Positions 5,972 to 42,009 of a DNA stretch of 64,000 nt are shown piece after piece. Source of the stretch: a virus; IMG/VR virus record IMGVR_UViG_3300042562_003539, positions 4,912-68,911 of that record, one strand, 5' to 3'. Both the position numbers and the translations under genes were made by a program. Within the stretch, counting starts at the first letter, position 1. Every line of letters begins with the position of its first letter. Under the pieces are notes generated by a model, which made no database searches, was not told the DNA's origin, and saw only the letters and a list, made by a program, of their open reading frames with translations.

Positions 5972-6222
5972 GCAACTGCACCCAATCTTTTTTCATGTTC
6001 CTTATTAACTGCAAAGTAAACCATATCAATCATATCATACAATTCAAAACATCCATCCGCAGAATCGAACCATTTATCAATTTCTCTGATGTTGCCGAGA
6101 AATTCAACTGATTCACCTAAATCGCCACCCAATCTTTGACTGAGTCTGCCATGTAAAAATCTAACATGGTCGTCAGAAAGTTTCAAGCAGAACTCTCTTA
6201 GATAAACTTCTGGCTTCTTCAT
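5968..6222 (-). CDS. hypothetical protein
   Basis: Start at MKKPEVY with GAGG RBS. Confidence 0.7.
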   Translation of the reverse strand: MKKPEVYLREFCLKLSDDHVRFLHGRLSQRLGGDLGESVEFLGNIREIDKWFDSADGCFELYDMIDMVYFAVNKEHEKRLGAVA

Positions 6223-7467: not shown

Positions 7468-8490
7468 TTATATACGAAAATTAGGATTAAATATATCATC
7501 ATAATTTATTGACATTTCGCCATACTCAGAACACATATCTTCAATTTCTTTTTGAGCAAACCTTCTAGCACTACTACCCATTATACCATTTGATTTTTCA
7601 TAATTGCAATTTAAATGCAAACGATCAAGAAACCATTCATATACTTGAGTCAATCCCGGTGAAAGATTGTATTTTGAATTGAATCCAAGAAAATCAAAAA
7701 CATCTCGTGGATCAAGCCAACAATAACCAGACCAAGGATCTCCAGAGTAATAAGAGTTTGGCACGCCAAACTTTAAGGCTCTATCAATAAAATGTAATAA
7801 AAGTCTGATGTAATTCTTTGCCGTCCATGGATCAAGACAGCATTCTCCATCCATGATTCTAAACTCAATCGTTTTTCGTTTGTTGTTGTAATAATGATAA
7901 GTGTTAATTGTATAATACTTGCAGCAACCAAGCTTGCGAATCAAATAATCATTAGAATGAAATCCATCTTCAACTCTTTCAAAAATTTCCGATTGCCCCA
8001 GCAACTGACAATACTGATTGCGCTTGCGGCTTGTTGGCATTGAATCCATAAAAACTGGCTCACATTTAATCCACCAAGTAATAATGTTTGCCAATTCTTG
8101 CTCGCTAAGATCACTCACATCAACATGAACGTGAAAGCTGCATCTTTCATCAGCATTGATTTTATTATCGTTCCCAAGCGCATCAATTACCTTACAAGTT
8201 TCCATAAGTCCAGCCCAGCCCTTAAGCACTGGTGTGCATATTTCGATGCCACAACTACTGTCAGGTTTGATAATCCAATCACTATTGTTGTGGTCATATG
8301 CCCATTTGTGTATTTTAACTATTTTTTCAGAAGATTTTTGTACTAAATTTGCTACATAATATGTGCCTTCTGGCAATATTCCATCATTGTGACCAAGCGG
8401 CCTATTCCTAAAATCAAATGCATTGATTTCAATTTCCGCACCAAATCTTCGGAGGTTGTTTATATCAATATTTTCTTTGATAAATTCCAT
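7468..8490 (-). CDS. putative amidoligase (Amidoligase_2 / COOH-NH2 ligase type)
   Basis: RFGAEIE, KPDSS, EICTPVL, CSFHVHV, TIEFR motifs; start taken at MEFIKE (AGGGGG RBS). Confidence 0.8.
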   Translation of the reverse strand: MEFIKENIDINNLRRFGAEIEINAFDFRNRPLGHNDGILPEGTYYVANLVQKSSEKIVKIHKWAYDHNNSDWIIKPDSSCGIEICTPVLKGWAGLMETCKVIDALGNDNKINADERCSFHVHVDVSDLSEQELANIITWWIKCEPVFMDSMPTSRKRNQYCQLLGQSEIFERVEDGFHSNDYLIRKLGCCKYYTINTYHYYNNKRKTIEFRIMDGECCLDPWTAKNYIRLLLHFIDRALKFGVPNSYYSGDPWSGYCWLDPRDVFDFLGFNSKYNLSPGLTQVYEWFLDRLHLNCNYEKSNGIMGSSARRFAQKEIEDMCSEYGEMSINYDDIFNPNFRI

Positions 8491-8597
8491 CGAAAACCCC
8501 CTGTTCACATTATAAGAATAGCAACTTTGAGTAGCAATTTATTAAATCAAACCTATAATTATTTACAAAGGCGTCGTAAAGACACAAGGAGCAATAC

Positions 8598-15299: not shown

Positions 15300-16424
15300 A
15301 TGCCTGAATTTGACTTTATGATTGTGGGATCAGGATTCTTTGGTGCCACTTTTGCAAGAAAAGCAACAGATGCTGGCAAAAAGTGCCTTGTAATTGATAA
15401 AAACAATCACATTGCTGGCGCAACATATGATCGAAAATGGGACAATGGCATTATTGTAAGTGAATATGGAGCGCACATATTCCACACTCAAAGCGAAGAA
15501 GTCTGGGACTTCATTAATAAATTCACAACAATTATGCCTTTCACAAACAAACCAAAAGTTTTATCTAAAGGAAATGTTTATTCATTCCCAATTAACATGA
15601 TGACTCTTCATCAATTATGGGGAGTTATCAATCCAGAAGAAGCATACCGTAAACTGCAAGATGTGCGGATACCATGCGAAAATCCTAGAAACTTTGAAGA
15701 ATGGGCTTTAGACAGAGTTGGCAAGGAAATCTATGAATTATTCTTTTATGGATACACTAAAAAACAATGGATGAAAGAACCTAGAGATCTTCCAGCCTCA
15801 ATAATTCAGAGACTGCCAATAAGACTTACTTATGAAGAAAATTATTTCACAACAAAATATCAAGGCATTCCAAATGAAGGATATTCAGCAACAATAAAAA
15901 ATATGCTTGATGGAATTAAAACAGAACTCAATACTGATTTTTTTACAATTAGAAACAAATGGCGTGATTATGCCAAACATCTGATCTACACAGGACCAAT
16001 AGATAAGTTTTACGACTATGAGTTTGGATCTTTGGAATACAACACTTTAAGATTTGAACACAAAAAAATGCATGGCGACTATCAAGGGAATGCTGTGTTT
16101 AATCATGTAGACATGTCTGTGCCACATATCAGGACAATAGAGCATAAGCATTTTTACAAAAACAATCCAAAACATTATGAAGTCAAGCTGCAATCGAAAG
16201 AAGAAACTGTTGTCTCATATGACATTCCAGTTGCATTTAAAGATCATCCCGAACCTTACTATCCAATCAGAGATGATAAAAACAGCGAACTATACAATAA
16301 GTACGCAGATCTTAAAACAAACCACAAAGAAATCACTTTTGGAGGAAGGCTTGGTGAATATAAATATCTGGACATTGACCAGACAATTGCTTCAGCATTA
16401 ACTAAGTTTAAAACATTTGTGTAG
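15300..16424 (+). CDS. glf: UDP-galactopyranose mutase
   Basis: IVGSGFFGA, YGAHIFHT, YTKKQW, RLPIR, YQGIP, YTGPID, EPYYP, GRLGEYKYLD. Confidence 0.95.
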   Translation: MPEFDFMIVGSGFFGATFARKATDAGKKCLVIDKNNHIAGATYDRKWDNGIIVSEYGAHIFHTQSEEVWDFINKFTTIMPFTNKPKVLSKGNVYSFPINMMTLHQLWGVINPEEAYRKLQDVRIPCENPRNFEEWALDRVGKEIYELFFYGYTKKQWMKEPRDLPASIIQRLPIRLTYEENYFTTKYQGIPNEGYSATIKNMLDGIKTELNTDFFTIRNKWRDYAKHLIYTGPIDKFYDYEFGSLEYNTLRFEHKKMHGDYQGNAVFNHVDMSVPHIRTIEHKHFYKNNPKHYEVKLQSKEETVVSYDIPVAFKDHPEPYYPIRDDKNSELYNKYADLKTNHKEITFGGRLGEYKYLDIDQTIASALTKFKTFV

Positions 16425-16619
16425 AGAGGCTAAACCAACAAGGTTAACCTCTCTGTCTCGATTTCAAGTTTTTAATTAAACTTATTTGAATTGCCTTTGA
16501 AAAGTGCCTCAAAGCATCCTTTTCCTGCATTAAGGTTTCAGGTATTACATAATGATCCGACATCCATACAGACAGCCTGAACTTTTATAATTGTAATACC
16601 GAGGTAGTAAAAAGAGACA
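16423..16619. ncRNA. candidate structured RNA or cis-regulatory leader
   Basis: Six short helices within 200 nt of non-coding DNA (see findings). Confidence 0.4.
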
Positions 16620-16627
16620 ATATATAT

Positions 16628-17578
16628 ATGTTTCCTTATGTTAAGAAAAAACAAATTGAACCAATAAGTCTAAAAGAACACTTTCTGAGAAGAAATAAGG
16701 TTTTAATTAAAAGAAAGTATGGTGGTCATGGTGATATCATCATGCAAAGAATGATGTTTGAAGATTTTCAAAAACACATGCCAGAAATAGAATTAACCTA
16801 CACATGTCCTAAATTATATAAAGATTTTGCAAATAATCACCCATTTGCAAAATGGGTGCCTATAGAAGAAATCAATGAAAGAGATTATGGCATTATTTTT
16901 GACATAAGCACAGCTTGTCGTGTTCATGAAAGTAAAATGGGCGGGAGAAATACTGACCATCGCAGTGACATATGGGCGAAAAGTTGTGGTGTAGAACTTA
17001 CGAATCACAACTGTCACATGGAAATTAATGATGTAGATCTTTATAAAAAATTTATTGAAGAACTTAATCCACAAAAACTGCCAACTGTTTTATTCGCAAC
17101 TCAATCAACAAAAGACAATTTCGGCCAAGCTAAAAGTCTGCCAGAAAAAACTACCTACCAAACAATAAGCAAACTCAAAGAGCTTGGGTTCTTTGTTTTT
17201 ACAATTCACAAAGAGCCAATTGAAATATTCACACTAACAAATACTGTTCAATTTATTAATATAGAACTTTCTGCTTGGGCAGGATTGACAGCAGCAGCAG
17301 ATTATGTCATATCGATTGACACAGGAACATTTCATCTTGCTGGAGCTTTAAAAAAACCATTAGTAGGAATTTTTTCATTTACCGATGGAAAAGTATACGG
17401 TAAATATTACAAATTCACATTGGTTCAAAGACATCGTGACAATGGCAATTGGGATTGTGGTCCATGCTATAATTGCACAATCTGTCCAAAATCAAAAGAA
17501 ATTATAAAACCTTGTATGAGCGATATTAGATTTGAAGAAATAATCGATGCTTTTCAAAAAGAATGTAAAGCTAATTGA
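16628..17578 (+). CDS. glycosyltransferase family 9 (heptosyltransferase-like)
   Basis: GGHGDIIM, ADYVISIDTGTFHLAGALKKPLVGIF, C-terminal CGPCYNC..C..C. Confidence 0.85.
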   Translation: MFPYVKKKQIEPISLKEHFLRRNKVLIKRKYGGHGDIIMQRMMFEDFQKHMPEIELTYTCPKLYKDFANNHPFAKWVPIEEINERDYGIIFDISTACRVHESKMGGRNTDHRSDIWAKSCGVELTNHNCHMEINDVDLYKKFIEELNPQKLPTVLFATQSTKDNFGQAKSLPEKTTYQTISKLKELGFFVFTIHKEPIEIFTLTNTVQFINIELSAWAGLTAAADYVISIDTGTFHLAGALKKPLVGIFSFTDGKVYGKYYKFTLVQRHRDNGNWDCGPCYNCTICPKSKEIIKPCMSDIRFEEIIDAFQKECKAN

Positions 17579-18467
17579 CATCTACCGCTTTCTTTAACCA
17601 AACATTATCTAAATCAAATTCACGAATTTTAATTCCAGACATTAAAATTATATCTTGTCTCATTTTATTTGTTTCATCGTTTTCCGTAATAGAACCAACT
17701 CTCTTGGCATAAATTATTTCATTTATGCCAAAATTGATAATTCTCTGCAAGCAATTAACGCATGGAGTTCCTGTTATGTATATTTTAGATCCACCTATGG
17801 TAAGTGGATTTGTGGTACAGTTCAAAATGGCATTCTCTTCTGCGTGAATCATCCATAATCTTTTTTTATCTCTTATTTTATAAGGAATTTTGCTCTTATC
17901 CGATCCACGAATTGTCGCATTATATCCAGTTCCAATAATATGATTTTGACTGGTAACGATCACAGATCCATGTCTAATATCAGGATCATCTGATCTTAAA
18001 GAAACATCAAATGCTATGTTTAGAAAGTATTCATCAAAAGTAGGCCTTTCAATTTTCCCAATAGAATAATTATTTAAAAAGCATCTTCTGCAATATTCAA
18101 GAAAAACATCATCTGTGAAACTACCTCGCATAATACTTAAATTTTTATGTATCCAACGAACATTCCCTTCAATATATCCAAGGGAACGATCTATCATGTC
18201 TAAAAAGACAGAAGAAAAATCACCTTCTAAATCAAATGAATTAAATTCTAATGGCATTCCAGACAGGCTACATTTTCCGTTTTGATTCAGAAATAAATTC
18301 CACAAATATTGCGGTGACAAATCAAAAGGTATTTTTTTGCCTATCGTATTTTTCTTCAAGTTGTCAACATAAACAAGTGGCAAATCTCCACATTGTCTTT
18401 TTTCATCATTGCCAAGAACAGGAATATCATTGCTGATAAATCCTGTCAAATCATTATTTTCTACCAT
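17571..18467 (-). CDS. dCMP deaminase with N-terminal degenerate HNH-like endonuclease domain
   Basis: RPTFDEYF, GTGYN, HAEENAI, PCVNC; N-terminal QNGKCSLSG...LDMID.SLGYIEGNVRW. Confidence 0.85.
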   Translation of the reverse strand: MVENNDLTGFISNDIPVLGNDEKRQCGDLPLVYVDNLKKNTIGKKIPFDLSPQYLWNLFLNQNGKCSLSGMPLEFNSFDLEGDFSSVFLDMIDRSLGYIEGNVRWIHKNLSIMRGSFTDDVFLEYCRRCFLNNYSIGKIERPTFDEYFLNIAFDVSLRSDDPDIRHGSVIVTSQNHIIGTGYNATIRGSDKSKIPYKIRDKKRLWMIHAEENAILNCTTNPLTIGGSKIYITGTPCVNCLQRIINFGINEIIYAKRVGSITENDETNKMRQDIILMSGIKIREFDLDNVWLKKAVDVN

Positions 18468-19873: not shown

Positions 19874-21406
19874 TTATGCCTCGTAGGTGTCTTCTTCTGG
19901 AACAAATCCCTTTTTACTGCGCTGCTTCTTGCCCGAAGGAGCATCGCCTACATTGTCCATAGTAACTTCTCCAGCTTTCTTTTCCTGAATCAAGTTCATT
20001 CTTTCACGATATGTATCCTTCGATATTTCAAACATGTCAAGAGTACCAATCTTATAATCAAAGCCAATCTTAAATGCAAACCTTGACCGACCATTCCTGT
20101 GCTTAATGACAAAAACCCTTCCAACTTCAGCATCTTTTTCAAGAACTTGCTGATTAATTGACCAGAAAGCATCAAGAGGTTTGAACTGATCAAAGCTAGT
20201 GCCAATATTAGATTCATCAATATATTGACCAACTTCAAGTTTTGCAGCACTTTGGTTTGGCTGAACACATGTAAATGTACAATGACCTTTTTCAACTCCA
20301 TAACCACGAAGATCACGCAAAATACGATAAGCACTTTCATATTTTTTAACTGATGGATCGTCTTTCATTTCACCAACATAGTCAACAATTAAAACATTAG
20401 GCTTCCATCCTCTTAATTCTAATTGCGCCATATATGCTCTAATTCCATTGACATCAATCTGACCGCCGGGAAACTGTTTGACGTGCAATAGATTTGGATC
20501 TTCTTTTTCCTTTTTGAATTCTTCAATAGTTGCTTTAATTTCATCCTTCATATCACGAAGATTATTGATGTCCATCTTGGCAAACTGACTTGTAAATCTC
20601 TGAACAATACCAAGCTCATCCATTTCCAATGTAATATAAAGAACCTTATGGCCAAGTAAAACATTCTGAACAGCAGTTTTTACTAGAGCTAGAGACTTAC
20701 CAGTTCCCGGCAAGCCAATCCAACTTCCAATCTGACCAGCAAACAATCCGCCGCCCGTCAAGGCATTGTCAATCGCTGGGAAACCCGATGTGAATCTATC
20801 TTTACCAATGAATACATCATCCATACGACGAAACATTTCGTCAATATTCATGAAGTATTCAAGACCCGGTTCGTAAGACCTATCCACGAGCATGGCTTCA
20901 CGCATTTTTTCGTAAACAAAACTCCATGTTTTTTCATCTTCAGGAGCCTCTTGCATTTTTTCCAAACTAGAATGGAAAGCAAGCTTTACAGCTTGAACTT
21001 TAGCAAAATATGTTACCTTGTCTATCAGGTATTCACGAGAATCAACTCCCGGGACATAATAGTCATAAACACTTTTCAATTCAGCTTGATAATGCAACTG
21101 AATTGTACGATCACGATCTTTAAGGGCATTAGATAATTCTTGCTGAAGTATCCAATCCTTTGGTATAGACTTTTTGGTGCTAAAATATTCAAGAAGAATA
21201 CGACAAATAATTACATGAGCCTCATTGCTAAAATATTCAGGTTTAATTTTATCCATCGACTGAACAAGCATATAATCATCAGTCAAAATCATCGCCAACA
21301 ATCTGCGCTGAAAAGTATCATCCCATGCAAATTTAGGCCTAATGACTTCTGGGTCAGTCATTGATTCAAGCTTGGCTTGTTCTTCTGGTGTGAGTTCACG
21401 CATCAA
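19874..21406 (-). CDS. replicative DnaB-like helicase (T4 gp41-like)
   Basis: TSGFPAIDNALTGGG, GLPGTGKS, YITLEM, LIVDY, Q.N, KHRNG. Confidence 0.92.
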   Translation of the reverse strand: MMRELTPEEQAKLESMTDPEVIRPKFAWDDTFQRRLLAMILTDDYMLVQSMDKIKPEYFSNEAHVIICRILLEYFSTKKSIPKDWILQQELSNALKDRDRTIQLHYQAELKSVYDYYVPGVDSREYLIDKVTYFAKVQAVKLAFHSSLEKMQEAPEDEKTWSFVYEKMREAMLVDRSYEPGLEYFMNIDEMFRRMDDVFIGKDRFTSGFPAIDNALTGGGLFAGQIGSWIGLPGTGKSLALVKTAVQNVLLGHKVLYITLEMDELGIVQRFTSQFAKMDINNLRDMKDEIKATIEEFKKEKEDPNLLHVKQFPGGQIDVNGIRAYMAQLELRGWKPNVLIVDYVGEMKDDPSVKKYESAYRILRDLRGYGVEKGHCTFTCVQPNQSAAKLEVGQYIDESNIGTSFDQFKPLDAFWSINQQVLEKDAEVGRVFVIKHRNGRSRFAFKIGFDYKIGTLDMFEISKDTYRERMNLIQEKKAGEVTMDNVGDAPSGKKQRSKKGFVPEEDTYEA

Positions 21407-21585: not shown

Positions 21586-22137
21586 TCAATGCAGGAAATC
21601 AAACTCGCTTAATGAAACCATACCACTACGAATTGATTTTTCACGGGTAATTCTTTTACCCATGCTCTTCTGACCATTCCAAACAATTGCCTTGCAATAT
21701 GTCGTGAACTTAGTGTCAATCTTCAAAGGAGCATCTTTTTTAGGCTGCTGATCCTTTGGAACAAATCTATTGATAATGTTTTCAAGTAAATTTTCTTGAA
21801 AGCAACCATATTTCTGTCGGTTGGCTCCGTGACGAGTTCTATTCTCCCAAAGATTTTGAAGCTCTTCCAAAACTTTTTGAATAAAATTATCACTCACATA
21901 CTTCTTAGCTACATCAAGACATCTCTCGATATAAACTTGCCTCTTGTAATAGCTTCCTGCCCTAAGCATACTCATCTGAAGCTCTTGCTTTATATCTTCT
22001 GCGTCATCAATAAAATTATTATTGCTATTCTTCTTTTTCAATTCATGCGCTGCGTGCCAACAAAGCTTGGAAAACTTTTTATCAAGATCAAAAAATTCAA
22101 TTTCAGTAATTGGAAAATTGTGAACAATCTCAATCAT
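21586..22137 (-). CDS. sigma-70 region-2-only factor (gp55-like late sigma candidate) with internal insertion
   Basis: DAEDIKQELQMSMLRA (region 2.2-like) and TKFTTYCKAIVWN (region 2.3-like); no region 4. Confidence 0.6.
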   Translation of the reverse strand: MIEIVHNFPITEIEFFDLDKKFSKLCWHAAHELKKKNSNNNFIDDAEDIKQELQMSMLRAGSYYKRQVYIERCLDVAKKYVSDNFIQKVLEELQNLWENRTRHGANRQKYGCFQENLLENIINRFVPKDQQPKKDAPLKIDTKFTTYCKAIVWNGQKSMGKRITREKSIRSGMVSLSEFDFLH

Positions 22138-22147: not shown

Positions 22148-23461
22148 TTAAGACGTTTTTATCACTTTCAAATCGTTAAGATTGCGTCCACCACGACATG
22201 AAACCTTCAGTCGAAGTTTAGGACAAAGTTCAGATTCGCTTGTAAGCGCATCCATGCTTTTCTTGAAAATTTGTTTCCAGTTATCTTTAGTTACATAAAT
22301 AACGTAACCGTCATGTACAGTATAAGCAATTTGAGCTTTGCCTTCCAACGCAAAATATAATTTAATCAACTTTTCTAGGCATATCGTTGCAGCAGGAGAC
22401 TGCACAGCAAAATTTCTAGCAAGATATTCCTTGCCAACCTCAAAGTTTGTTCTTCGCTTACCGAAGATATCCTTTGCGTATCCATCTTTTTTAACTTTGC
22501 TTTCGCAATCGGCAACAAATGAAATAGCAGTGGGAAACAAAGAACTAATTCGCTCCACCACTTTCTCAGCCACATCAGCCGCCAAACCACATCTCAAAGA
22601 AAGTGATCGGGCCGACTGTCCATATATAACAGGCAAGAAGCATTTTTTTGCCAATTCCCTATCATTTTTTTCTGGATCACTTGACATCAAGACCTGAAAC
22701 AGTGCCGAATAAATATCATCACACTCACACAAACGCAATAGTTTAGAGTCTTGACTAGAGTTGGCTAACACAAAAACTTCCATACCCTTAAAATCAAAAC
22801 TCATAAATAAATTATCACAACCAATCGGCTTCAAAACATCTTTCAAATCAGATCCCATTGTATGCGGAACAAATGATTTTTTGTAAGCCCCATGACAACG
22901 TAATCGACCGTTTTCCTGACCATCAATCTCGTAGTAAGCGTGTACTTTGGCAGCACGTTCTACATCCAATATTCCTACACTCTCAAGATGAGGCAGAACT
23001 GTCGTCATTAACGGTAAATGAATCTTACGATAAATGTTTTCACTTTCTTTCCACAAACCCGACGAAACCAAATGCTTAATCCTATTCATCGCCTCAACAA
23101 ACGAAACAGGAGCAACTTTTTTAATACCACTAAATGATTCTAATATCTTTATATCAATTATAGAAGCCTTTATATCAAGACTCTTGCCAGTCTTACACAA
23201 AACATAGCTTGAAAAGTTCTTCCAATTCCAAGTAAAAACCTTTTTATCTTTTGAAAACAATGATAATTGCAACATACTCAAAATTAAAGGCAATGTATCA
23301 TCACGAATCATTACTTGAAACGAAACACCATCAGAAAGCATGAACTGAAGCTCATTCTCCAAGTCTTTTTCAGCAATGTCCATGATCTCTGGATTAAACC
23401 GCAAGAAAACGGCTTTCTGATCAATTCCAGATAACAACTTGGCCAGAGATTCAAAATTCAT
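22148..23461 (-). CDS. minimal family A DNA polymerase (thumb deleted, exonuclease degenerate)
   Basis: NGRL, motif A DFKGME, motif B RELAKKCFLPVIYG, FGKRR, NFAVQS, motif C TVHDG; AGGAGG RBS. Confidence 0.85.
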   Translation of the reverse strand: MNFESLAKLLSGIDQKAVFLRFNPEIMDIAEKDLENELQFMLSDGVSFQVMIRDDTLPLILSMLQLSLFSKDKKVFTWNWKNFSSYVLCKTGKSLDIKASIIDIKILESFSGIKKVAPVSFVEAMNRIKHLVSSGLWKESENIYRKIHLPLMTTVLPHLESVGILDVERAAKVHAYYEIDGQENGRLRCHGAYKKSFVPHTMGSDLKDVLKPIGCDNLFMSFDFKGMEVFVLANSSQDSKLLRLCECDDIYSALFQVLMSSDPEKNDRELAKKCFLPVIYGQSARSLSLRCGLAADVAEKVVERISSLFPTAISFVADCESKVKKDGYAKDIFGKRRTNFEVGKEYLARNFAVQSPAATICLEKLIKLYFALEGKAQIAYTVHDGYVIYVTKDNWKQIFKKSMDALTSESELCPKLRLKVSCRGGRNLNDLKVIKTS

Positions 23462-23566
23462 AGATCGTTCCTCCTAGGCCCAATTCTGCAAAACTTTTCC
23501 AGTTAAAACAAGACCAATTTATTTTTGAAATTTTTATTTACAATCAAACTTTGGAACGGGATGCTG

Positions 23567-23975
23567 ACCTAAATGGTAATTGCTGTATAAGTCAGTAAGA
23601 ATAATGACTTATTAGGTAAACAAGATTAGTAGAGCAAAAATTTAGCGTTTAAGCTTATTCTTTTTGTTACTGTCTTATTCACTTCAGCTTTTACCTTTTG
23701 GTTGGTGAAGACTTGCGTACTTTTTTTTGCAGTAAACCTAAGATCGAATAGTCCATGGCATTGTGTTTGTTTGGGAGACACAGGAGCCATGAAAGTCAGC
23801 ATAAATTCTATTCGACTTTACCTCTACTGCCGTGAGAACAATGCTACCCGTAATAGCATTTGTTGTAGAACAACTACAAAGACCTGCCCATGGTATGGGC
23901 CTCACAGGTTAGGCACCTTCATCAACTCAGGTAGTACGAAACCATTGTTGAATCCAGTTGGGGGATTGCCAACCA
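23567..23975 (-). ncRNA. candidate large structured ncRNA upstream of the PolA-like gene
   Basis: At least 10 helices incl. nested multibranch and a possible pseudoknot; strand inferred from the promoter at 23977-24004. Confidence 0.6.
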
Positions 23976-23976
23976 T

Positions 23977-24004
23977 ATTCTACAGATTAAAGCATGAATG
24001 TCAA
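23977..24004 (-). promoter_or_regulatory. sigma70-type promoter firing into the structured element
   Basis: TTGACA (23999-24004)-N16-TAGAAT (23977-23982). Confidence 0.7.
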
Positions 24005-24024
24005 ATATTATTTGCCCCAAAATG

Positions 24025-24912
24025 TCAAAAAACTTGCTTCAACCATTCAATTTTTTGATCATAATTAAAAATAATTTCTGGAAACTCTACTGGCAATTCA
24101 TTAAAAGAACTTCTATCCTCAGGCAATATTTCCCTTACTTTTTCAATCAGCCTTTCATAACAAACACTACCGAAACTACTATTTTTAGTTTTTTGTATGC
24201 TTTCTTGATTAGTTCTATCTAACATCTGTACATCACTAGCAAAACTTAACCAAAATGATATTTTACTTTCTTGATGAAGTTTAAGAAGATTGAATTCAAG
24301 AAGTAGGTCTTCTCCCAATAATTGTTCTTCATCGTACCTTATCATGTTGCTTAATTTTTTACTATAAAATACATGTCCACCTAAATTTCTTGCTGCCTTA
24401 TGACCTAATGTAAATATATCATGCTTTTCGGGTCCATACTTATATCCAAGATTAATAATATTCATGCCCCAACATACTGCATATTTATTTTCTCCAATCT
24501 GATTAGAGCCGTTTGTTTGTTCATTTAAAACTTGATCTGAAGGCTTGACAATTAAAACATCAGTTCCCGGGTGATGCCTCATGTGTTTTTCAATTTGAAT
24601 TGCGCCTGTTGGGTAAAATAGGTCGTCTCCATCAGTGAGACTCAGACCATCATATTCTGAGTTTTGCAAAAAATCTAATACAGAGTTTTTACCCTTACTC
24701 GGAGTGCCATTTGATTCTGTAACTTTATATTTGACATTCTCTTTTTCGCACCATTCTGAAAAATGAGAAACAAATTCTTGATTTTGAGAATTGATAATTG
24801 CAACTGTTTCTATTTCAATGGATTCGGTTGAAAATTGATTGCGACAAGAATTTGTGGCACGAATTGCCTTGTCCATATCACGACTAACTAATGGGCAAAA
24901 TGCTATTTTCAT
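24025..24912 (-). CDS. glycosyltransferase, GT-A fold (GT2-like)
   Basis: SNGTPSKGKN, LTDGDD DxD motif, GEDLL. Confidence 0.7.
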   Translation of the reverse strand: MKIAFCPLVSRDMDKAIRATNSCRNQFSTESIEIETVAIINSQNQEFVSHFSEWCEKENVKYKVTESNGTPSKGKNSVLDFLQNSEYDGLSLTDGDDLFYPTGAIQIEKHMRHHPGTDVLIVKPSDQVLNEQTNGSNQIGENKYAVCWGMNIINLGYKYGPEKHDIFTLGHKAARNLGGHVFYSKKLSNMIRYDEEQLLGEDLLLEFNLLKLHQESKISFWLSFASDVQMLDRTNQESIQKTKNSSFGSVCYERLIEKVREILPEDRSSFNELPVEFPEIIFNYDQKIEWLKQVF

Positions 24913-26305: not shown

Positions 26306-27241
26306 TTATATTTCTCTGTAATATTTGTGTAAGGGACTTGTATAGAGGGTGTAATCTAAAAGAGCAGTTCTTATATAAAGACCATTCCTGACTTGTCTTT
26401 CATGATAGTCAGCACGAGAATCATCATCTATGTCTTCACTAATTTCTTCATTTCTAGGGAGAGGATGAAGAATTGCAGCGTTTTCTTTGATTTTATTGAT
26501 ATTGGTTTTGTCAATCTTAAAGAAATCTAGAGAACCACTGACACCTTTGAATCTTTCTTTTTGGATTCTGGTCATATAAATGACATCGATTTCTGGAAGA
26601 ATGTCATTTGCGTCACATATTTCAACATTTTTACAAGGAATATTTGCAAGGTATTTTTCAGGTATGCTCAAATCACAATCTGCATGATCAGTGGCAGCGC
26701 AATAATATATTTTGCAACCATAAATGTGAAGAAGTTCAATAAGACTGTGTATTGTTCTTCCGTTTTTAAGATCTCCACACAACATAACCTTAAGATTACT
26801 GACATCTTTCCATTTTTGTTTAATTGTGTGAAGGTCAAGAAGTGCCTGTGTTGGATGTTCCCCAGATCCACTTCCTGCATTAATTACTGGAACACGAGAA
26901 TATGCTCTTGCTATTTCTGGCCAGCTTGAATCACCATGACGCATAATTATAGCATCAGAATACTGGCCAAGGGTGCGAAATGTATCCTTGAGGCTTTCAC
27001 CTTTGATTAAACTGCTACTTGAAGATGCATCAGCAGCCGTAACACATCTTCCTCCAAGCCAATGCATTGCTCGCTCAAAGGAAAATCTGGTTCTAGTAGA
27101 AGGTTCTGCAAAAAACGAAGAAATACATTTGTTGTTCATTTGGCGACAAAATTCCCAATTCTTTTCAATGTCTGTCGCAATTTCTAAAACAGTTTCAATT
27201 TGATCTTTAGTGAAGTCGGAAATGGACAAAAAATGACGCAT
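26306..27241 (-). CDS. pyrB: aspartate carbamoyltransferase catalytic subunit
   Basis: FAEPSTRTRFSF, KGESLKDT, INAGSGSGEHPTQALLD, GDLKNGRT, YMTRIQKER, HPLPR; start may extend to 27271. Confidence 0.95.
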   Translation of the reverse strand: MRHFLSISDFTKDQIETVLEIATDIEKNWEFCRQMNNKCISSFFAEPSTRTRFSFERAMHWLGGRCVTAADASSSSSLIKGESLKDTFRTLGQYSDAIIMRHGDSSWPEIARAYSRVPVINAGSGSGEHPTQALLDLHTIKQKWKDVSNLKVMLCGDLKNGRTIHSLIELLHIYGCKIYYCAATDHADCDLSIPEKYLANIPCKNVEICDANDILPEIDVIYMTRIQKERFKGVSGSLDFFKIDKTNINKIKENAAILHPLPRNEEISEDIDDDSRADYHERQVRNGLYIRTALLDYTLYTSPLHKYYREI

Positions 27242-27290
27242 TTGTTCATCTCGTAATTTTTTGCTTGACAATTAATTATATGTTGAGAAC

Positions 27291-28473: not shown

Positions 28474-28725
28474 ATGGCAACAAAAAAAACAACTTGTAAT
28501 TTACCAGCTGGATTGAGCGAGTGTTGCATCAATCCATCTATTGTTTTTAAATGTCCTCCACATAAATCTTCAGAAGTATGTGTAGACAATCAAAGCGATG
28601 GAGCTTATGTTCCTCGCACTGTTTCTTATGAAGAAGCATATCGTCAATGTAAGTATATCAAGCAAACAAGTTATCAAGGACAATATAAGCAATTTGGCAG
28701 CGCCTTCTCAAATAGCTTCAAATAG
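28474..28725 (+). CDS. small Cys-containing hypothetical protein
   Basis: 83-aa ORF upstream of the collagen genes. Confidence 0.55.
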   Translation: MATKKTTCNLPAGLSECCINPSIVFKCPPHKSSEVCVDNQSDGAYVPRTVSYEEAYRQCKYIKQTSYQGQYKQFGSAFSNSFK

Positions 28726-28732
28726 GAAAAAA

Positions 28733-30217
28733 ATGATAAATCAAGGTAATCAAGAAAATTTTGATAACAAAGAAGAATTATTAATCAATAATTCCGCCTA
28801 CGTCAAAGCTTTACAGCTTGGAGAACAAGGATATCAAGGATATCAAGGAACTAAAGGAACTCAAGGAACTCAAGGTTATCAAGGACCCGGAATAGGATCT
28901 CAAGGAAGACAAGGACATCAAGGAAGACAAGGAGAGCAAGGAGAGCAAGGATATCAAGGAAGACAAGGAAGACAAGGTCTGCAAGGAGAAAAAGGACTAA
29001 CGGGACCACAAGGAGGATTAGGATTAACAGGAGTAAAAGGGGATAAAGGGAATCAGGGTCAACAAGGAGAAAAAGGATCTGTAGGCATAGGAAACCAAGG
29101 ACAACAAGGAAATCTAGGACTTCAAGGACGACAAGGAAATAAAGGACTTCAAGGAGACTTTGGAAATCAAGGAGAAAGAGGAAATCAAGGTTTACAAGGA
29201 AGAGACGGTTTTCAAGGCACTATTGGATTTCAAGGTCGTCAGGGATTTCAAGGAAATCAAGGAAATCAAGGTTTTCAAGGATTTCAAGGTCGCCAAGGAT
29301 TTCAAGGCCGTCAAGGAGAAAAGGGCTATCAAGGCAGTCAAGGTTTTCAGGGATATCAAGGTCATCAAGGTCGTCAAGGATTTCAAGGTCGCCAAGGATA
29401 TCAAGGTCATCAAGGATATCAAGGATATCAAGGTCATCAAGGACGCCAAGGATTTCAAGGTCGCCAAGGATTTCAAGGTCATCAAGGATTTCAAGGTCGC
29501 CAAGGATTTCAAGGTCACCAAGGATTTCAAGGTCGCCAAGGAGAAAAAGGATTAATTGGAGTTCAAGGAGCAATAGGATTAACTGGGGCAATAGGCCCAC
29601 AAGGAAAACAAGGAATAAACGGCTTAGGAGGAGTTGTTGGTCCGAAAGGGTCTCAAGGCGCTCAAGGCGCAATAGGGCCGAAAGGATCAACAGGATCAAC
29701 AGGCCCCAAAGGAGCAACAGGTGCGACAGGCCCCACAGGAGCAACAGGTGCGACAGGAGCAAAAGGATCAACAGGAGCAAAAGGAGCACAAGGTTCAGCA
29801 GGAGCTAAAAATGCAATTGTTCCAATTATACAAGAATATTCTGAAAAATATGTTGGCTTGTCTTGCGTAGAAATGCCTGAAGTTCGGTTTGAAGATTTAG
29901 TTTTTACAGTTATTGGCAATCAAGGCACTAACAATCATAAAGATTTTATTAAATTAAATGATAGTTTTGTGCAAGTTTGCGATCCTCAGTCAATTGTCGT
30001 CGTCAGTGTAGTTCCATCAGCTCCAATTAACATTGGAGCATACATAGAAGGTGAATTTTTGTTTATCGAAGCAGAAAGCGAAAAGTTAATTGAAAATGAA
30101 ATAAAATTAACAATTAGACTATCAGGAATTAGATTGGGCTTTAGCGGCAGAAGATTTGTTGAATACACATACAAAGAAATGATTAAAAACAATCAATTTT
30201 GGAATAGTTGGGAATAA
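28733..30217 (+). CDS. collagen-like fibre protein 1 (Gly-X-Gln)
   Basis: Long G-X-Q / G-X-K / G-X-T triplet run; C-terminal [11 protein letters not shown] domain; start MINQG after AGGA. Confidence 0.85.
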   Translation: MINQGNQENFDNKEELLINNSAYVKALQLGEQGYQGYQGTKGTQGTQGYQGPGIGSQGRQGHQGRQGEQGEQGYQGRQGRQGLQGEKGLTGPQGGLGLTGVKGDKGNQGQQGEKGSVGIGNQGQQGNLGLQGRQGNKGLQGDFGNQGERGNQGLQGRDGFQGTIGFQGRQGFQGNQGNQGFQGFQGRQGFQGRQGEKGYQGSQGFQGYQGHQGRQGFQGRQGYQGHQGYQGYQGHQGRQGFQGRQGFQGHQGFQGRQGFQGHQGFQGRQGEKGLIGVQGAIGLTGAIGPQGKQGINGLGGVVGPKGSQGAQGAIGPKGSTGSTGPKGATGATGPTGATGATGAKGSTGAKGAQGSAGAKNAIVPIIQEYSEKYVGLSCVEMPEVRFEDLVFTVIGNQGTNNHKDFIKLNDSFVQVCDPQSIVVVSVVPSAPINIGAYIEGEFLFIEAESEKLIENEIKLTIRLSGIRLGFSGRRFVEYTYKEMIKNNQFWNSWE

Positions 30218-30255
30218 GCTATTTTATAATAAATCAAAAAAAGTATAGGAATAAA

Positions 30256-33200
30256 ATGGCAAATCAATGCAATCAATCAGCAACGCAAAGAACAGAAGAA
30301 GAATTATTGTGTGTTTTTGCAGACAATAACCAAGGTGGAATTACCGCACAAGATCTGCGAGATTTTGTTGTTTCGACTCAAATTGGACAGTCAAAACAAG
30401 GACCACAAGGAAACCAAGGGCAATCTGGCTCACAAGGCAACCAAGGCTCACAAGGAAGAGCAGGGTCTCAAGGCGCTCAAGGTGGTCCTAGTATTGTTGC
30501 GGGTCCACAAGGCGCACAAGGTACAAAAGGAAATCAAGGAAATCAAGGATTACAAGGAAATCAAGGAACTATTGGCCTTCAAGGCAGTCCTGATGGATTC
30601 CAAGGAATTCAAGGTCTTCAGGGCGAACAAGGAATCAAAGGTGAACAAGGTCTTCAAGGCGAACAAGGAATCCAAGGTGCTGGATTTCAAGGAGATATTG
30701 GCCTACAAGGCTATCAAGGGTTCCAAGGTCAAGGATATCAAGGACAAAAGGGAAGTCAAGGAATTGATGGAGCACAAGGACAACAAGGCGTTCAAGGTTT
30801 TCAAGGACCGCAAGGTGGAAAAGGCGCACAAGGAACAACAGGCGCAACAGGGATTGGAACACAAGGCGTTCAAGGGCTTCAAGGACTACAAGGCAATCAG
30901 GGAATTCAAGGCGCTGGATATCAAGGCGCTCAAGGATATCAAGGAAGACAAGGAACTATTGGATTACAAGGAACTATTGGATTACAAGGACAACAAGGAC
31001 AACAAGGCCAACAAGGATTTCAAGGACATCAAGGAAGACAAGGTTTAATAGGAAATCAAGGCGAAAAAGGGTTCCAAGGAGAACAAGGGCGACAAGGATT
31101 TCAAGGACATCAAGGAAGACAAGGTTTAATAGGAAATCAAGGCGAAAAAGGGTTCCAAGGAGAACAAGGGCGACAAGGATTTCAAGGCCGTCAAGGGTTA
31201 ACTGGAAATCAAGGATCAACTGGAAATCAAGGCGAAAAAGGGTTCCAAGGAAATCAAGGAAACCAAGGACAAGGATTCCAAGGAAATCAAGGATTCCAAG
31301 GATTCCAAGGAAATCAAGGATTCCAAGGATTCCAAGGATTCCAAGGATTCCAAGGATATCAAGGATTAGGATATCAAGGATACCAAAGCAACCAAGGATT
31401 CCAAGGGCTTCAAGGTTTCCAAGGAAATCAAGGCGAACAAGGGCTTCAAGGTTTCCAAGGAAATCAAGGCGAACAAGGCTATCAAAGTGAACAAGGATTT
31501 CAAGGTGAACAAGGAAGACAAGGAAGACAAGGCGAACAAGGATATCAAGGAGATAAAGGCGAACAAGGATATCAAGGATTTCAAGGAATACTAGGAAGTC
31601 AAGGATTTCAAGGAATACTAGGAAGTCAAGGAAATAAAGGAGATACTGGAAATCAAGGCGAACAAGGATATCAAGGAAATCAAGGCTATCAAGGTCATCA
31701 AGGATTTACTGGAATTCAAGGAGATAGAGGATATCAAGGATATCAAGGTAGACAAGGAAGACAAGGCGAACAAGGCGATGTTGGATTAACTGGCAATCAA
31801 GGAAGCCTAGGATATCAAGGAGAACAAGGATATCAAGGATTAGGATATCAAGGAGAAACAGGATATCAAGGATATCAAAGCAATCAAGGATACCAAGGAT
31901 ACCAAGGATATCAAGGAATACAAGGATATCAAGGACTAGGATATCAAGGAGAAACAGGATATCAAGGATATCAAAGCAATCAAGGATACCAAGGAAATCA
32001 AGGTGAACAAGGATATCAAGGACTAGGATATCAAGGAGAAACTGGAAATATAGGAGATGTAGGATATCAAGGATATCAAGGAAATCAAGGTGAACAAGGA
32101 TATGTAGGACAACAAGGAAGCGAAGGTGAGCGAGGATACCAAGGATATCAAGGAATCCAAGGATTTCAAGGTCGTCAAGGATACCAAGGAAATCAAGGAG
32201 ATAGAGGATATCAAGGATTTCAAGGAACTCAAGGAGCACAAGGAGATCTTGGATTAACTGGTTACCAAGGACAAATAGGCTATCAAGGTCTGCAAGGTGA
32301 ACAAGGATATCAAGGTTTTCAAGGGTTCCAAGGATATCAAGGACTAGGATATCAAGGGTTCCAAGGATATCAAGGGTTCCAAGGATATCAAGGGTTCCAA
32401 GGATATCAAGGATTTCAGGGATATCAAGGATTTCAGGGATTCCAAGGTACTATTGGAATTACTGGCGCTCAAGGCATAACTGGCGCTCAAGGATCTCAAG
32501 GATTCCAAGGCTATCAGGGAAATCAAGGATTCCAAGGGTTTCAAGGATTCCAAGGTTACCAAGGAAATCAAGGTCATCAAGGTTATCAAGGGCTACAAGG
32601 CTATCAAGGTTATCAAGGGCTGCAAGGATTTCAGGGAAATCAAGGAAATCAAGGGCTGCAAGGTAGTCCCGATGGATTTCAAGGAGGCCAAGGTTATCAA
32701 GGGTTCCAAGGTCATCAGGGAGAACAAGGCTATCAAGGAAATCAAGGATTCCAAGGGTTCCAAGGTCATCAAGGAAATCAAGGATTCCAAGGGTTTCAAG
32801 GTCATCAAGGAAATCAAGGATTCCAAGGGTTCCAAGGAAATCAGGGAGAACAAGGCTATCAGGGAAACCAAGGATTCCAAGGGTTCCAAGGATTTCAGGG
32901 AAACCAAGGCTATCAAGGGTTCCAAGGAAATCAAGGCAATCAGGGAGAACAAGGATTCCAAGGGTTCCAAGGATTTCAGGGAAACCAAGGCTATCAAGGG
33001 TTCCAAGGAAATCAAGGCAATCAGGGAGAACAAGGATTTCAAGGATTCCAAGGATTTCAGGGAAATCAAGGTAATCAGGGAGAACAAGGGGCTGGTTATC
33101 AAGGAAATCAAGGTTACCAAGGAAATCAAGGGCTGCAAGGTAGTCCCGATGGATTCCAAGGAGGCCAAGGCTATCAAGGGTTCCAAGGGTTACAAGGAAA

Positions 33201-35331
33201 TCAAGGCTATCAAGGGAACCAAGGCTATCAAGGGTTCCAAGGTCATCAGGGAGAACAAGGCTATCAGGGAAATCAAGGATTCCAAGGATTCCAAGGCCAT
33301 CAAGGAAATCAAGGATTCCAAGGGTTCCAAGGAAATCAGGGAGAACAAGGCTATCAGGGAAACCAAGGATTCCAAGGGTTCCAAGGTCATCAGGGAGAAC
33401 AAGGCTATCAGGGAAATCAAGGATTCCAAGGATTCCAAGGCCATCAAGGAAATCAAGGATTCCAAGGGTTCCAAGGTCATCAGGGAGAACAAGGCTATCA
33501 GGGAAATCAAGGATTCCAAGGGTTCCAAGGTCATCAAGGAGAACAAGGTTATCAGGGAAATCAAGGTTTTCAAGGATTCCAAGGTCATCAGGGAGAACAA
33601 GGCTATCAAGGAAATCAAGGATTCCAAGGATTCCAAGGTTATCAAGGAAATCAAGGGTTCCAAGGGTTTCAAGGAAATCAAGGATTCCAAGGATATCAAG
33701 GAAACTTGGGATATCAAGGAGATGCTGGTGAATCTGGTGTTCAAGGACCGCAAGGCATTACAGGCACTGGACTACAAGGCAATCAGGGATTACAAGGTCC
33801 TGCTGATGGATTTCAAGGATATCAAGGATATCAAGGATATCAAGGATCAATAGGGAGTCAAGGTGTTGCTGGAACAGGTGGTCAAGGCTATCAAGGAAAC
33901 CAAGGAACTCAGGGATATCAAGCATATCCTTTTGGATTTCAAGGCAGTCAAGGCAACGTAGGAAGCCAAGGATTCCAAGGACCAGCTAATGGTTTTCAAG
34001 GAAGACAAGGCGCACAAGGAAGACAAGGATTCCAAGGAAACCAAGGAAATCAAGGAGAACAAGGAAATCAAGGCAATCAAGGAGCAGGATTCCAAGGCAA
34101 TCAGGGATTGCAAGGCCCTGCCGATGGATTTCAAGGATATCAAGGTAACCAAGGATATCAAGGTAACCAAGGATATCAAGGTAACCAAGGAAGACAAGGA
34201 TATCAAGGAAGACAAGGATATCAAGGCAACCAAGGAAATCAAGGTTTTCAAGGTCCTGCCGATGGATTTCAAGGCATTCAAGGAAATCAAGGATCTTTAT
34301 TTGGTCCAAAATATAAGTATGAGTCGGTATATGGTAATCAAGCTCCATCTGCTGGTTATATTCACTTTAATAATGCAACAATAAGTAATGTAACTCAGAT
34401 TTACATCAAAAAAGTTGATTATAACGGTATAGATGAAGGAAATTACATCGAAGATTTTATTGTAAATAATTACATTTACATTGAATCCGACAATACAACA
34501 AATTTAGCAATATTTAATTCAAATGGAAGTCCCATTGGCTACCAGTCTGGGGGATATTCTGGATTTCCAATAGATTATTATTCAGTTCCAGTCAATTTTG
34601 TTTCTGGAAACGCATTAGTAAATCAAGAAATTTATAGCTTACTTACAGGAATAACAGGGAATCAAGGTTATCAAGGTTATCAAGGTTATCAAGGAAATCA
34701 GGGTACAATTGGGGCACAAGGAAATCAAGGTGGACCAGCTGGATTTCAAGGCCAAACAGGAGCACAAGGGCCTAAAGGCGATCAAGGCGATCAAGGTGAT
34801 CAAGGTGAGCCGGGTCCTCTAGGAGAACAAGGTCCTCCCGGCGAAAATGGTTCTGGATTGCAAGGTTCAGCCGGAGCACAAGGCGCACAAGGCGCAGAAG
34901 GTCCACAAGGTGATAAGTATGCGATCCTTCCTGTTGTTACTTCTCAAGGAACTGAATATGTTGAGCTTATATGTGTAGAAATGCCAGAAGTTAGATTTGA
35001 AGATATCGTCATATTCAAGGTTGGTGGACTTGGACATAAAACAGAAAATGTTTCAAAATTTATTGATGATCGGTTGTTACAAGTTTGTGCCTTTAACACA
35101 ATAAAACCTGTAAGTGTTGTTCCATCAATGCCAGTTATTGTTGGAGCTTATGTGAGAGACAATCTTATTATTATTGATGTGGAAAGCGATAAGCTTATCA
35201 ATAATCAAATTGAAGTGGTAGTGAGACTTTCTGGAATAAGGGCTGGCGCTGCACATAAGAGATTCGCAACCCATACCTACGAAGAAATGGTTAGGAATAA
35301 TACATTCTGGAGTAGATGGAGAGAAGGTTAA
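30256..35331 (+). CDS. giant collagen-like fibre protein 2 (Gly-X-Gln)
   Basis: ~1300 aa of G-X-Q triplets, one globular insert, same C-terminal [11 protein letters not shown] domain; start MANQC after AGGA. Confidence 0.88.
30400..34295 (+). repeat. 9-bp-period coding repeat (CAAGGNNNN)n
   Basis: caagga/caaggt recurring every 9 nt; higher-order duplications of 27-81 nt visible. Confidence 0.9.
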
Positions 35332-42005: not shown

Positions 42006-42009
42006 GGTT

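Follow-up and report, generated by a model that had tools for sequence, protein, structure and literature searches.

A probable new class of large pseudoknotted RNA at the head of a thumb-less family A DNA polymerase operon in uncultured phages

What is encoded in the long gap that precedes the gene of a shortened family A DNA polymerase (PolA) in an uncultured phage, and what might it have to do with that enzyme? The locus lies on the minus strand of a 64-kb stretch of viral DNA (positions 4,912 to 68,911 of the IMG/VR record IMGVR_UViG_3300042562_003539; this whole stretch is called the window hereafter), where 563 nt at 23462-24024 separate an upstream open reading frame (ORF), ending at 24025, from the PolA gene, which begins at 23461. 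A preliminary description of this DNA, made from the sequence alone, had singled out the gap before the co-oriented polymerase gene as the largest of the window, without credible ORFs, rich in helices and headed by a near-consensus promoter, and had proposed that its RNA replaces the missing thumb of the polymerase or supplies a primer or template. The analysis reported here indicates that the gap very probably encodes a new family of large, compact, pseudoknotted RNA, ~440 nt long and tied to the operon. The elements around which the argument turns are these:

23977..24004, minus strand: promoter P1, sigma-70-type, TTGACA-N16-TAGAAT, score 11/12, with the RNA start expected at ~23970
23528..23973, minus strand: structured RNA of ~440 nt (nhmmer match at 23528-23947, E 1e-83; covariation; 5' end placed from P1)
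22148..23461, minus strand: thumb-less family A DNA polymerase of 437 aa with exo-like N domain, palm and fingers (Pfam, PDB profile alignment, AlphaFold2 (AF2), Foldseek)

The first description of the gap held up well. It is the largest in the window when ORFs of at least 90 aa are counted, the runner-up (5705-6172) measuring 469 nt. The ORFs within it are of 58 and 55 aa on the minus strand and 118 aa on the plus strand; a Pfam search of the 58-aa and 118-aa ORFs gave no match, and no ORF recurs at this position in the ORF maps of the relatives. As for the helices, the 514 nt that follow the -10 box on the sense (minus) strand reach a minimum free energy of -139.5 kcal/mol, against -114.4 +/- 5.9 for 100 dinucleotide shuffles (z -4.26), and the antisense strand folds less well in the same shuffle test (z -2.89). 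The promoter is where it had been placed and matches the consensus in 11 of 12 positions.

Relatives of the locus, all of them metagenomic, were found through back-translated peptide scans, first with the PolA sequence and later with alignments, which yielded 12 viral-contig, 42 metagenome-contig and 42 viral-contig loci, with PolA proteins 25% to 100% identical to that of the window. Identical upstream regions and two loci with less than 400 nt upstream were removed, leaving 48 distinct regions, the window and an identical copy of it included. All of the first 12 relatives have a gap before PolA, of at least ~410 nt in a locus at a contig end and of ~530-740 nt elsewhere, and in the aligned gaps near-invariant blocks alternate with variable hairpins. 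The spacer between the 3' end of the RNA and PolA, 70-140 nt long, varies in both length and sequence.

Profile searches link this element to the polymerase. The nhmmer profile of the RNA core, run against 212 stored records (among them 114 mostly random loci of an over-loose IMG/VR pattern scan), matched only directly upstream of PolA; among the matches of that pattern scan that were listed (at least 114), four are real according to nhmmer, with scores identical to those of PolA-derived loci. A covariance model of the core (R1, 185 positions) matched 37 of 52 sources with E <=4.3e-4, in every case on the PolA strand and ending ~240-370 nt before the PolA start, except for three loci cut by a contig end. 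The search for the RNA away from PolA covered the stored loci and ten whole records, in which the models found exactly one strong match in each of the five RNA-bearing records and none in the five records of the other two groups described below. The upstream neighbour is a co-oriented ORF of 294-311 aa in some lineages and a divergent gene in L009-L012, and the RNA stays with PolA in both. The preliminary description had raised the prospect that relatives might carry the element beside unrelated genes; this did not materialize, since it is always directly upstream of PolA and co-oriented, though the upstream neighbours change.

Three metagenome-assembled genome (MAG) contigs that had no part in training (L240, L241 and L242) served as a test of the models. 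In L240, whose PolA is 51% identical to that of the window, the RNA scored 129.5 bits at the expected position, and in L242 (PolA 32% identical) a 560-nt gap held a weak match of 18.3 bits (E 1.4e-4 in 701 nt) with the hallmark motifs present. These are GTDB contigs of 13, 546 and 271 kb (L240, L241 and L242), labelled Neisseriaceae, Bacteriovoracaceae and Acidimicrobiaceae, respectively; they are probably mis-binned huge-phage contigs, hence poor evidence of host.

That the conserved element folds as RNA is borne out by covariation, which had been expected of it and was found on unfitted as well as fitted alignments. In A4, an unfitted MAFFT alignment of 24 distinct sequences, 72.0% of the cells in 101 pairs (three pseudoknots included) are paired, against 60.0 +/- 0.6 in shuffles, and both sides have changed in 78 of the 101 pairs, against 61.7. 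The covariation score was 0.330, compared with 0.171 in shuffled alignments (a value reached in 0 of 500 shuffles) and 0.100-0.143 when the 3' partners were slid by 1-3 columns, controls that remove the phylogenetic signal only incompletely. The best helices of A4 (C, C1, C2, C3, E and all three pseudoknots) are 81-94% paired. In the model-fitted alignment of the core (A7, 30 sequences, 40 pairs) pairing reaches 87.6%, 38 of the 40 pairs have changed on both sides, and covariation scores 0.628 (shuffled 0.205, slid no higher than 0.122). The 3' domain, aligned with model R3 (A11, 24 sequences, 28 pairs), is 70.2% paired and scores 0.379 (shuffled 0.202, slid no higher than 0.139); pairing in its hairpin E reaches 90%. 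Cells with G.U outnumber those with A.C by 199 to 102 in A4 and by 80 to 38 in A7 and, given this excess together with the fold z-scores of the two strands, the structure belongs to the strand that is sense to PolA.

The resulting model, derived from compensatory changes in the alignments, comprises 15 nested helices and three long-range pseudoknots (PK1, PK2 and PK3), and its 3' boundary was placed where the conserved GAUUGUAAAUAAAAAUUU motif (23545-23528) ends. From 5' to 3' its parts are:

23922..23951, minus strand: hairpin Pb (outer stem 23951-23947/23926-23922, inner stem 23943-23941/23932-23930)
23831..23906, minus strand: C domain, in which helix C (23906-23901/23836-23831) closes round hairpins C1, C2 and C3
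23729..23830, minus strand: central domain, with helix Z (23830-23825/23734-23729), helix X (23815-23808/23751-23744) and hairpin D (23791-23786/23759-23754)
23721..23728, minus strand: A8 linker, between the 3' strand of helix Z and the 3' strand of PK1
23575..23695, minus strand: 3' domain, built on helix I (23695-23691, 23688-23685 / 23585-23582, 23579-23575)
23556..23568, minus strand: 3' tail clamp, GUCAGCAU at 23568-23561 (3' strand of PK2) followed by CCCGU at 23560-23556 (3' strand of PK3)

Near the 5' end, the stems of Pb are 52-69% paired on the MAFFT alignment, and its loop CGUAC (23938-23934) forms PK1 with GUACG (23720-23716), which in the unfitted alignment A4 is 89.7% paired with 4 of 5 pairs changed on both sides. 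Hairpin Pa, which would precede Pb, is doubtful in the window, because its 5' strand (23973-23969) overlaps the expected start of transcription. For helices C, C1, C2 and C3, pairing amounts to 82-94% on A4 and 87-100% on A7, and the loop of C3 (ACGGG, 23851-23847) provides the 5' strand of PK3. In the central domain an internal loop carries conserved AGGU and UUUAGG, and AUGCUGAC (23802-23795), carried in an internal loop inside helix X, is the 5' strand of PK2. Pairing in A7 amounts to 89.8% for Z, 98% for D and 66.8% for X, with both sides changing in every pair, and a repeat search independently recovered the Z and X arms and PK2. Within the 3' domain, helix I encloses helix H (23682-23673/23625-23616) with hairpin E (loop UUAAAC), as well as hairpin F (23610-23589); this is the least certain part of the structure, and the model is approximate there. 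In A4, 81.2% of PK2 is paired and 4 of its 8 pairs have changed on both sides; for PK3 the figures are 84.2% and 2 of 5. The tail thus pairs with two distant loops: at the level of sequence, the fold is closed by 13 nt at its 3' end, which clamp two domains together through PK2 and PK3, and through PK1 the 5' hairpin is joined to the place where the central domain ends.

Some relatives carry additions to this architecture. In the RNA of L023 (2409-2907) a stretch of ~60 nt within the variable region upstream of hairpin E is duplicated in tandem, and the segment with GGCTTAAATGC at its end is present twice. In L010 (4381-5000) and L043 (1140-1759), small hairpins with TTTCATT-type loops are inserted both into variable loops of the RNA and into the stretch that separates it from PolA; L043 has up to four copies, and the inserts have the appearance of miniature mobile hairpins. 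The mini-hairpin is not a feature of the window, where 8 matches were counted against 7.9 expected.

None of the known RNA families accounts for the element. At the gathering score, Rfam 15 gave 0 matches in the window and 0 in the loci of 10 relatives; with E up to 10, the region 23300-24200 returned three chance-level matches only (two snoRNA models and one intron fragment), and ARAGORN found no tRNA or tmRNA in the window. On these grounds tmRNA, RNase P and other known RNAs were rejected. A group I intron splitting the polymerase gene was likewise discarded: Met1 of PolA is invariant in a 12-sequence alignment and marks a start of its own, L009-L012 carry the upstream gene on the opposite strand, and there was no group I or group II Rfam match at E <=10. 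In the window PolA has its own ribosome-binding site, AGGAGG.

Promoter P1 is the sole strong one among four promoter-like sites scanned in 23350-24150. Similar sites, scoring up to 12/12, precede the RNA core in 21 of 26 relatives (shuffled regions, 34%), and their distance from the core is constant within subgroups. In the subgroup of the window the promoter abuts the structure, which argues that the transcript would begin where the fold begins; in most other lineages it lies 60-90 nt further upstream, and there a conserved ACUGAGAUGG stands before Pa. A second promoter-like element (P2) just before PolA seemed conserved on visual inspection, but reaches the thresholds used in only 10 of 26 relatives, compared with 21% of shuffles, and the site in the window falls below them. 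No terminator-like site was found in the scan between the RNA and PolA, the sole scanned candidate being the internal C1 hairpin. With no terminator between them and only a weak promoter-like site ahead of PolA, the RNA and the operon of PolA, a 183-aa protein and a DnaB-like helicase probably form one transcript, with the RNA first.

The RNA is not present in every relative. Of the 15 sources that R1 missed, L054, L061 and L089 are cut before the RNA core and L055 is an ordinary cellular polA-coaE locus. A rebuilt model (R2), run with filters off, gave nothing below E 0.48 in L013, L046, L024, L027, L069, L049, L095, L052, L055, L090, L093 and L094. Six of these (L049, L095, L052, L090, L093 and L094; PolA 33-36% identical) have no room for the RNA, with at most ~60 nt or an overlapping ORF upstream of PolA, and the same is true of LR756511.1, a 595-kb uncultured phage that is the sole relative in GenBank. 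In L013/L046 and in L024/L027/L069, on the other hand, noncoding regions of ~600-800 nt occupy the same place and are recognised neither by R1 and R2 nor by R3. The three members of the L024 group are 91% identical to one another, too close for covariation analysis, and their noncoding region may be either a replacement of the RNA or an extreme divergence of it. The 3' tails of L013 and L010 look alike by eye. In a PolA tree of 33 sequences the six no-gap loci are separated from all gap-bearing loci by a weakly supported branch (77/85), and L024 is nested beside the RNA-bearing L023. The co-occurrence of the RNA with the thumb deletion that the preliminary description had proposed to check is not strict, equally thumb-less PolA proteins being encoded without it in seven loci. 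Within one large clade of uncultured freshwater jumbo phages, the RNA has thus long accompanied the operon by vertical descent; because thumb-less PolA operons exist without it, it is neither universal nor indispensable to the polymerase.

The polymerase itself truly lacks a thumb subdomain, in agreement with what had been read from its sequence. Against PF00476 (DNA_pol_A) it scores 96.8 bits (cut-off 34.3, E 1.7e-27), covering only positions 103-379 of the 381 in the profile. With a 33-sequence family profile, residues 172-420 align to positions 267-529 of the Klentaq chain, that is, from just after the thumb, and on this sequence reading ~5 residues stand where the Klentaq thumb has ~100. 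The AF2 model, with a predicted local distance difference test score (pLDDT) of 93.7, contains the exo-like N domain, palm and fingers, and Foldseek relates it to the large fragments of Pol nu, Bst, Klenow and Klentaq, with template-modelling scores of ~0.7 normalised to the query (TMq) and ~0.55 normalised to the target (TMt); the model has 437 residues versus ~540-580 in those fragments. Using motif names and Pol I numbering that we take to apply here, D223 and E228 (motif A), K272 and G281 (motif B) and H383, D384 and G385 (motif C) are invariant in 33 sequences, R268 and Y280 are nearly so, and L276 occupies the Phe/Tyr 'B3' position. The catalytic residues, previously described as intact, are so as regards Asp223, Glu228, Lys272 and Tyr280, but motif C reads HDG (H383-D384-G385) and not HDE. 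The invariant steric-gate Glu228 is as in DNA-dependent polymerases that use deoxynucleoside triphosphates (dNTPs). Residues 1-110 follow the beta-alpha succession of exo-like domains, and over its full length the model aligns to large fragments that combine exo and pol parts; canonical exonuclease motifs were not evident by eye, the invariant D28, K81, D103 and E108 being off DxE/NxxxD/YxxxD, and Pfam DNA_pol_A_exo1 had 0 matches in the records of 5 relatives.

The thumb-less family comprises 214 clusters at E <=1e-10, the best 120 of which are 369-487 aa long and bear no informative name. Passages of the PolA survey PMC10201439 describe broken thumbs, thumb insertions and truncated exonuclease domains and no thumb-less group, and those of PMC12926913 make no mention of the PolA thumb or of such a group; relative to these passages the group appears to be new.

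Downstream of PolA, in operon direction, follow:

21586..22137, minus strand: conserved 183-aa all-alpha protein, directly downstream of PolA, 51-86% identical across 17 relatives, RNA-less ones included
19874..21406, minus strand: DnaB-like replicative helicase of 510 aa (Pfam DnaB_C; PHROG 19, E 2e-50)

The 183-aa protein is more conserved than PolA (51-86% versus 33-76% identity). Its AF2 model is all-helical (pLDDT 81.7), a fold search of the PDB returned no OB-fold or other match at E <=0.001, and weak Sigma70_r2 matches appeared in 5 of 18 members (best E 0.042), together with an Atlas lead; a sigma-like factor of the phage and an accessory protein of the polymerase are both conceivable roles. 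The replication genes were surveyed in five large relatives, 40-79% complete. A DnaE-type Pol III alpha, in the form of two ORFs, is present in 4 of 5, Prim-Pol in 4 of 5, Toprim_2 in 3 of 5 and a DnaG zinc ribbon in 2 of 5, while PolB was found in 0 of 4 and PolA exactly once in each of 4. The two DnaE ORFs (L216-L223, records G001-G004), of ~460-480 and ~910-930 aa and ~4-10 kb apart, match the first and second halves of Pfam DNA_pol3_alpha, with the exception of G002, in which the second match lies in a 457-aa open frame; the pair suggests a putative split replicase. The relatives thus encode a DnaE-type polymerase, a DnaG-like primase and Prim-Pol, and therefore the replisome is of bacterial style (DnaE/DnaB/DnaG set), with the thumb-less PolA probably as an auxiliary, Pol I-like enzyme. 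This agrees with the earlier view that PolA is probably not the main replicase. The T4-like replisome proposed at the same time survives in part: the window does encode a gp32-like single-stranded-DNA-binding protein and a RecA/UvsX-like protein next to the DnaB-like helicase in its gene set, but the polymerase of the relatives is DnaE-type and not of the B family.

As to what the RNA does, the reading we favour, to which as a whole we assign a rough probability of 0.35, is that of a replication-linked stable RNA made with the operon. It would be produced as the 5' part of the replication-operon transcript, persist as a stable folded module and work with the phage replication machinery at a nearby strand-switch (origin-like) region, possibly as an origin or primer-type transcript extended by the auxiliary Pol I-like PolA, in functional analogy to ColE1 RNA II. 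The narrower proposal that the RNA is physically used in phage replication by the adjacent thumb-less PolA, whether as origin or primer transcript or as a positioning cofactor, is a tentative one, and the primer/origin version taken by itself, on the pattern of ColE1 RNA II, would be rather unlikely.

The location of the operon bears on this reading, and also on the alternative given in the preliminary description, a structured replication origin with a dedicated priming polymerase, which may hold, although the relatives encode dedicated primases too. In all seven records in which GC skew was computed, the head of the operon lies 0.9-5 kb (14 kb in G003) from a local minimum of the cumulative skew, and the contrast in skew between left and right at the operon head falls within the top 1-15% of positions. 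The global minimum lies no farther away than 1.65 kb in G001, 4.25 kb in the window and 5.1 kb in G009. The operon head therefore lies near a strand switch that could be an origin of replication, but the skew does not tie the RNA to that switch, because two RNA-less records show the same and the skew follows gene orientation.

The likeness to ColE1 RNA II lies in a sigma-70 promoter that leads into a structured RNA of ~500 nt, and here in Pol I-like and DnaB genes, with DnaE in the relatives. In the plasmid, a Pol I-type enzyme starts DNA synthesis downstream of RNA II and hands over to DnaB and Pol III-type enzymes. The phage RNA differs in its covarying pseudoknots, which RNA II is not known to have, and in that the polymerase is phage-encoded and adjacent; the GC-skew evidence is not specific to the RNA.

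Several observations weigh against the replication-linked reading. The functional part of it derives from position only, and the skew switch is shared by the two RNA-less records and confounded with gene orientation. Seven thumb-less PolA operons (the six no-gap loci and LR756511.1) do without the RNA and retain the same PolA length and the same 183-aa protein after it; in L241 (PolA 33% identical) a small membrane-protein ORF sits in the 430-nt gap instead, and the L024-type region of ~800 nt (L024:2190-3000, L027:2215-3000, L069:2210-3000) is conserved and has hairpins of its own. No direct repeats or iterons were detected beyond chance pairs of 10-14 nt, on account of which an iteron-type origin was rejected. 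With DnaG-like and Prim-Pol primases encoded in the relatives, a route through an RNA primer is not required, and three or four covarying pseudoknots make the RNA more elaborate than any primer transcript known to us. As regards the structure, helices Pa, Pb, Z, X, I, H and F are the weakest in A4 (52-69% paired, partly with visible register shifts), and the model-fitted alignments are biased towards the structure. The region is contained in 20 lake-water DNA sequencing runs, with no RNA run among those listed.

Of the other explanations, the one that survives best, a quite possible one if on balance doubtful, is that of an autonomous 'ornate' phage RNA of the GOLLD/ROOL kind, stable, acting in trans and merely co-expressed early, with a job apart from PolA such as host takeover, anti-defence or RNA scaffolding. 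Its size, multiple pseudoknots and phage origin would fit, as would a strong promoter of its own, a spacer to PolA that varies in length and sequence, the seven PolA operons that function without the RNA and the presence of another large noncoding region at the same site in L024-type phages. However, the RNA keeps its position and orientation upstream of PolA in all 37 model matches and in L240 even though the upstream neighbours change, there is one copy per genome and none elsewhere in the whole records searched, and no terminator of its own was found in the scan. GOLLD, ROOL, OLE, HEARO and raiA resemble it in being RNAs of several hundred nt with multiple domains and long-range pseudoknots, found in phage DNA from lakes and recognised by covariation; it matches none of them in sequence or structure, with no hit in Rfam 15, and unlike them it is fixed before one protein operon. 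The known ornate phage RNAs are not known to be tied to one protein gene.

A cis-regulatory 5' leader is unlikely. The RNA would then be a huge riboswitch-like element or protein-binding operator that governs elongation, stability or translation of the PolA operon mRNA, and it would indeed be the 5' untranslated region of the operon if P1 is the main promoter, given that P2-like sites occur in only 10 of 26 relatives versus 21% of shuffles and no terminator intervenes before PolA; closure of the 3' tail through PK2 and PK3 could act as a switch. Nevertheless, neither a conserved expression platform nor a terminator/anti-terminator is present, conservation does not extend to the 70-140-nt spacer or the ribosome-binding region, and pairing with the start region was not seen to be conserved. 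With its ~440 nt and at least three pseudoknots the RNA also goes beyond known cis-regulators, and the RNA-less relatives retain the same operon. The operators of T4 genes 43 and 32 are comparable in that they too are structured and belong to the 5' leaders of phage replication genes, but they span a few tens of nt and overlap the ribosome-binding site, whereas this RNA of ~440 nt is followed by a non-conserved spacer before the start codon. A gp32 pseudoknot is mentioned in passages of PMC10690425.

Very improbable is the idea with which the preliminary description began, that the RNA is a subunit of a ribonucleoprotein polymerase and serves PolA as thumb replacement, as primer or, through A8, as template. 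RNA and thumb-less PolA are adjacent, co-oriented and co-inherited, the polymerase does lack its thumb, and family A polymerases can use RNA templates according to PMC12776460 and PMC13646829. The role of thumb substitute was not borne out, given that PolA proteins of the same length and with the same motifs, equally thumb-less, are encoded in the seven loci behind a spacer of at most ~60 nt and with no model match; for three of them the rest of the record was also free of matches. L024 groups within the RNA-bearing relatives and has the same PolA without a recognisable RNA, and the steric-gate Glu228 is invariant. The template proposal fares no better: eight adenines do stand at 23721-23728, as had been noted, but in the relatives (alignment A4) the segment is an A-rich linker of 4-9 nt, variable in length and sequence and with no homopolymer, so that A8 is not conserved. 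Retrons and defence-associated reverse transcriptases share the arrangement of a structured noncoding RNA directly upstream of a co-oriented polymerase gene; they differ in that a family A DNA polymerase with a dNTP steric gate takes the place of the reverse transcriptase here, no template segment is conserved, and the setting is a phage replication operon and not a host defence locus.

That there is no functional RNA at all, the gap holding a DNA-level element (such as protein-binding sites), a missed coding gene or a degenerate intron, is hardly credible: conservation would also be expected of a DNA element, but compensatory changes affect 78 of 101 pairs, G.U exceeds A.C on the sense strand specifically, numerous indels have lengths not divisible by three, none of the ORFs is conserved, and PolA's own conserved start and the opposite-strand upstream gene in L009-L012 exclude an intron.

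A last comparison concerns the CcPol-MP/PolA-SSB primases, which, in the parts of PMC7581432 and PMC10061031 that describe them, likewise combine a truncated family A polymerase, a small protein, a helicase and a mobile genome. The neighbour here is all-alpha and not an OB (oligonucleotide-binding) fold, the truncation takes the thumb and not N-terminal domains, and no RNA is described in those parts of the two papers. A PolA-SSB primase pair was rejected for this locus, as the 183-aa neighbour is all-alpha and the relatives encode Toprim_2, DnaG zinc ribbon and Prim-Pol.

A full-text literature search, non-exhaustive and with the supplements of PMC10690425 (>8,000 phage RNA candidates) outside its scope, returned no report of this RNA or of any RNA tied to a family A polymerase. 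This is a new class of large structured phage RNA in fixed partnership with a thumb-less PolA operon. We know of very few classes of large (>400 nt) multi-pseudoknot RNAs in bacteria and phages, and each of those known has opened new biology or structural work. The RNA is unusually tractable, with a defined promoter, covariation for 15 helices and three pseudoknots, more than 35 natural variants and a fixed partner operon, and the finding also defines a sizeable group of thumb-less family A polymerases (the 214 clusters) in uncultured jumbo phages. If the RNA acts in replication, it would represent a new way to start or organise DNA synthesis; if PolA uses it, PolA would be the first enzyme of family A with a structured RNA dedicated to it, and giant phages would contain a new class of large RNA that is functional and possibly catalytic. 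Should it have no part in replication, it would still be a new class of ornate RNA for structural and functional study.

The upstream neighbour of the RNA in the window stands outside this unit:

24025..24912, minus strand: 295-aa ORF, function unassigned, with no Pfam or PHROG match

Its place is taken by divergent genes in L009-L012, where the RNA stays with PolA. In RNA-less lineages an ORF of 371-391 aa without a Pfam match overlaps the start codon of PolA (L095:1829-3004, L049:770-1885, L230:1841-3004); homology between the 295-aa ORF of the window and the 391-aa PolA-abutting ORF of those phages was considered and rejected (BLASTP E 0.76).

The source record measures 68.9 kb and has a CheckV completeness of 16%; the source is therefore a jumbo phage, uncultured and from lake water. 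The window also contains giant ORFs of 2955 aa (50505-59372, minus strand), 1408 aa (59386-63612, minus strand; no Pfam match) and 1707 aa (30208-35331, plus strand), and a collagen-repeat protein is encoded at 28598-30217. Metabolic and cell-surface genes are found within 7468-8508, 15300-18467, 26306-27271 and 39848-47634, and the set includes an amidoligase, UDP-galactopyranose mutase, a heptosyltransferase-like protein, GT4 glycosyltransferases, a sulfotransferase, a triple methyltransferase, dCMP deaminase and aspartate/ornithine carbamoyltransferase.

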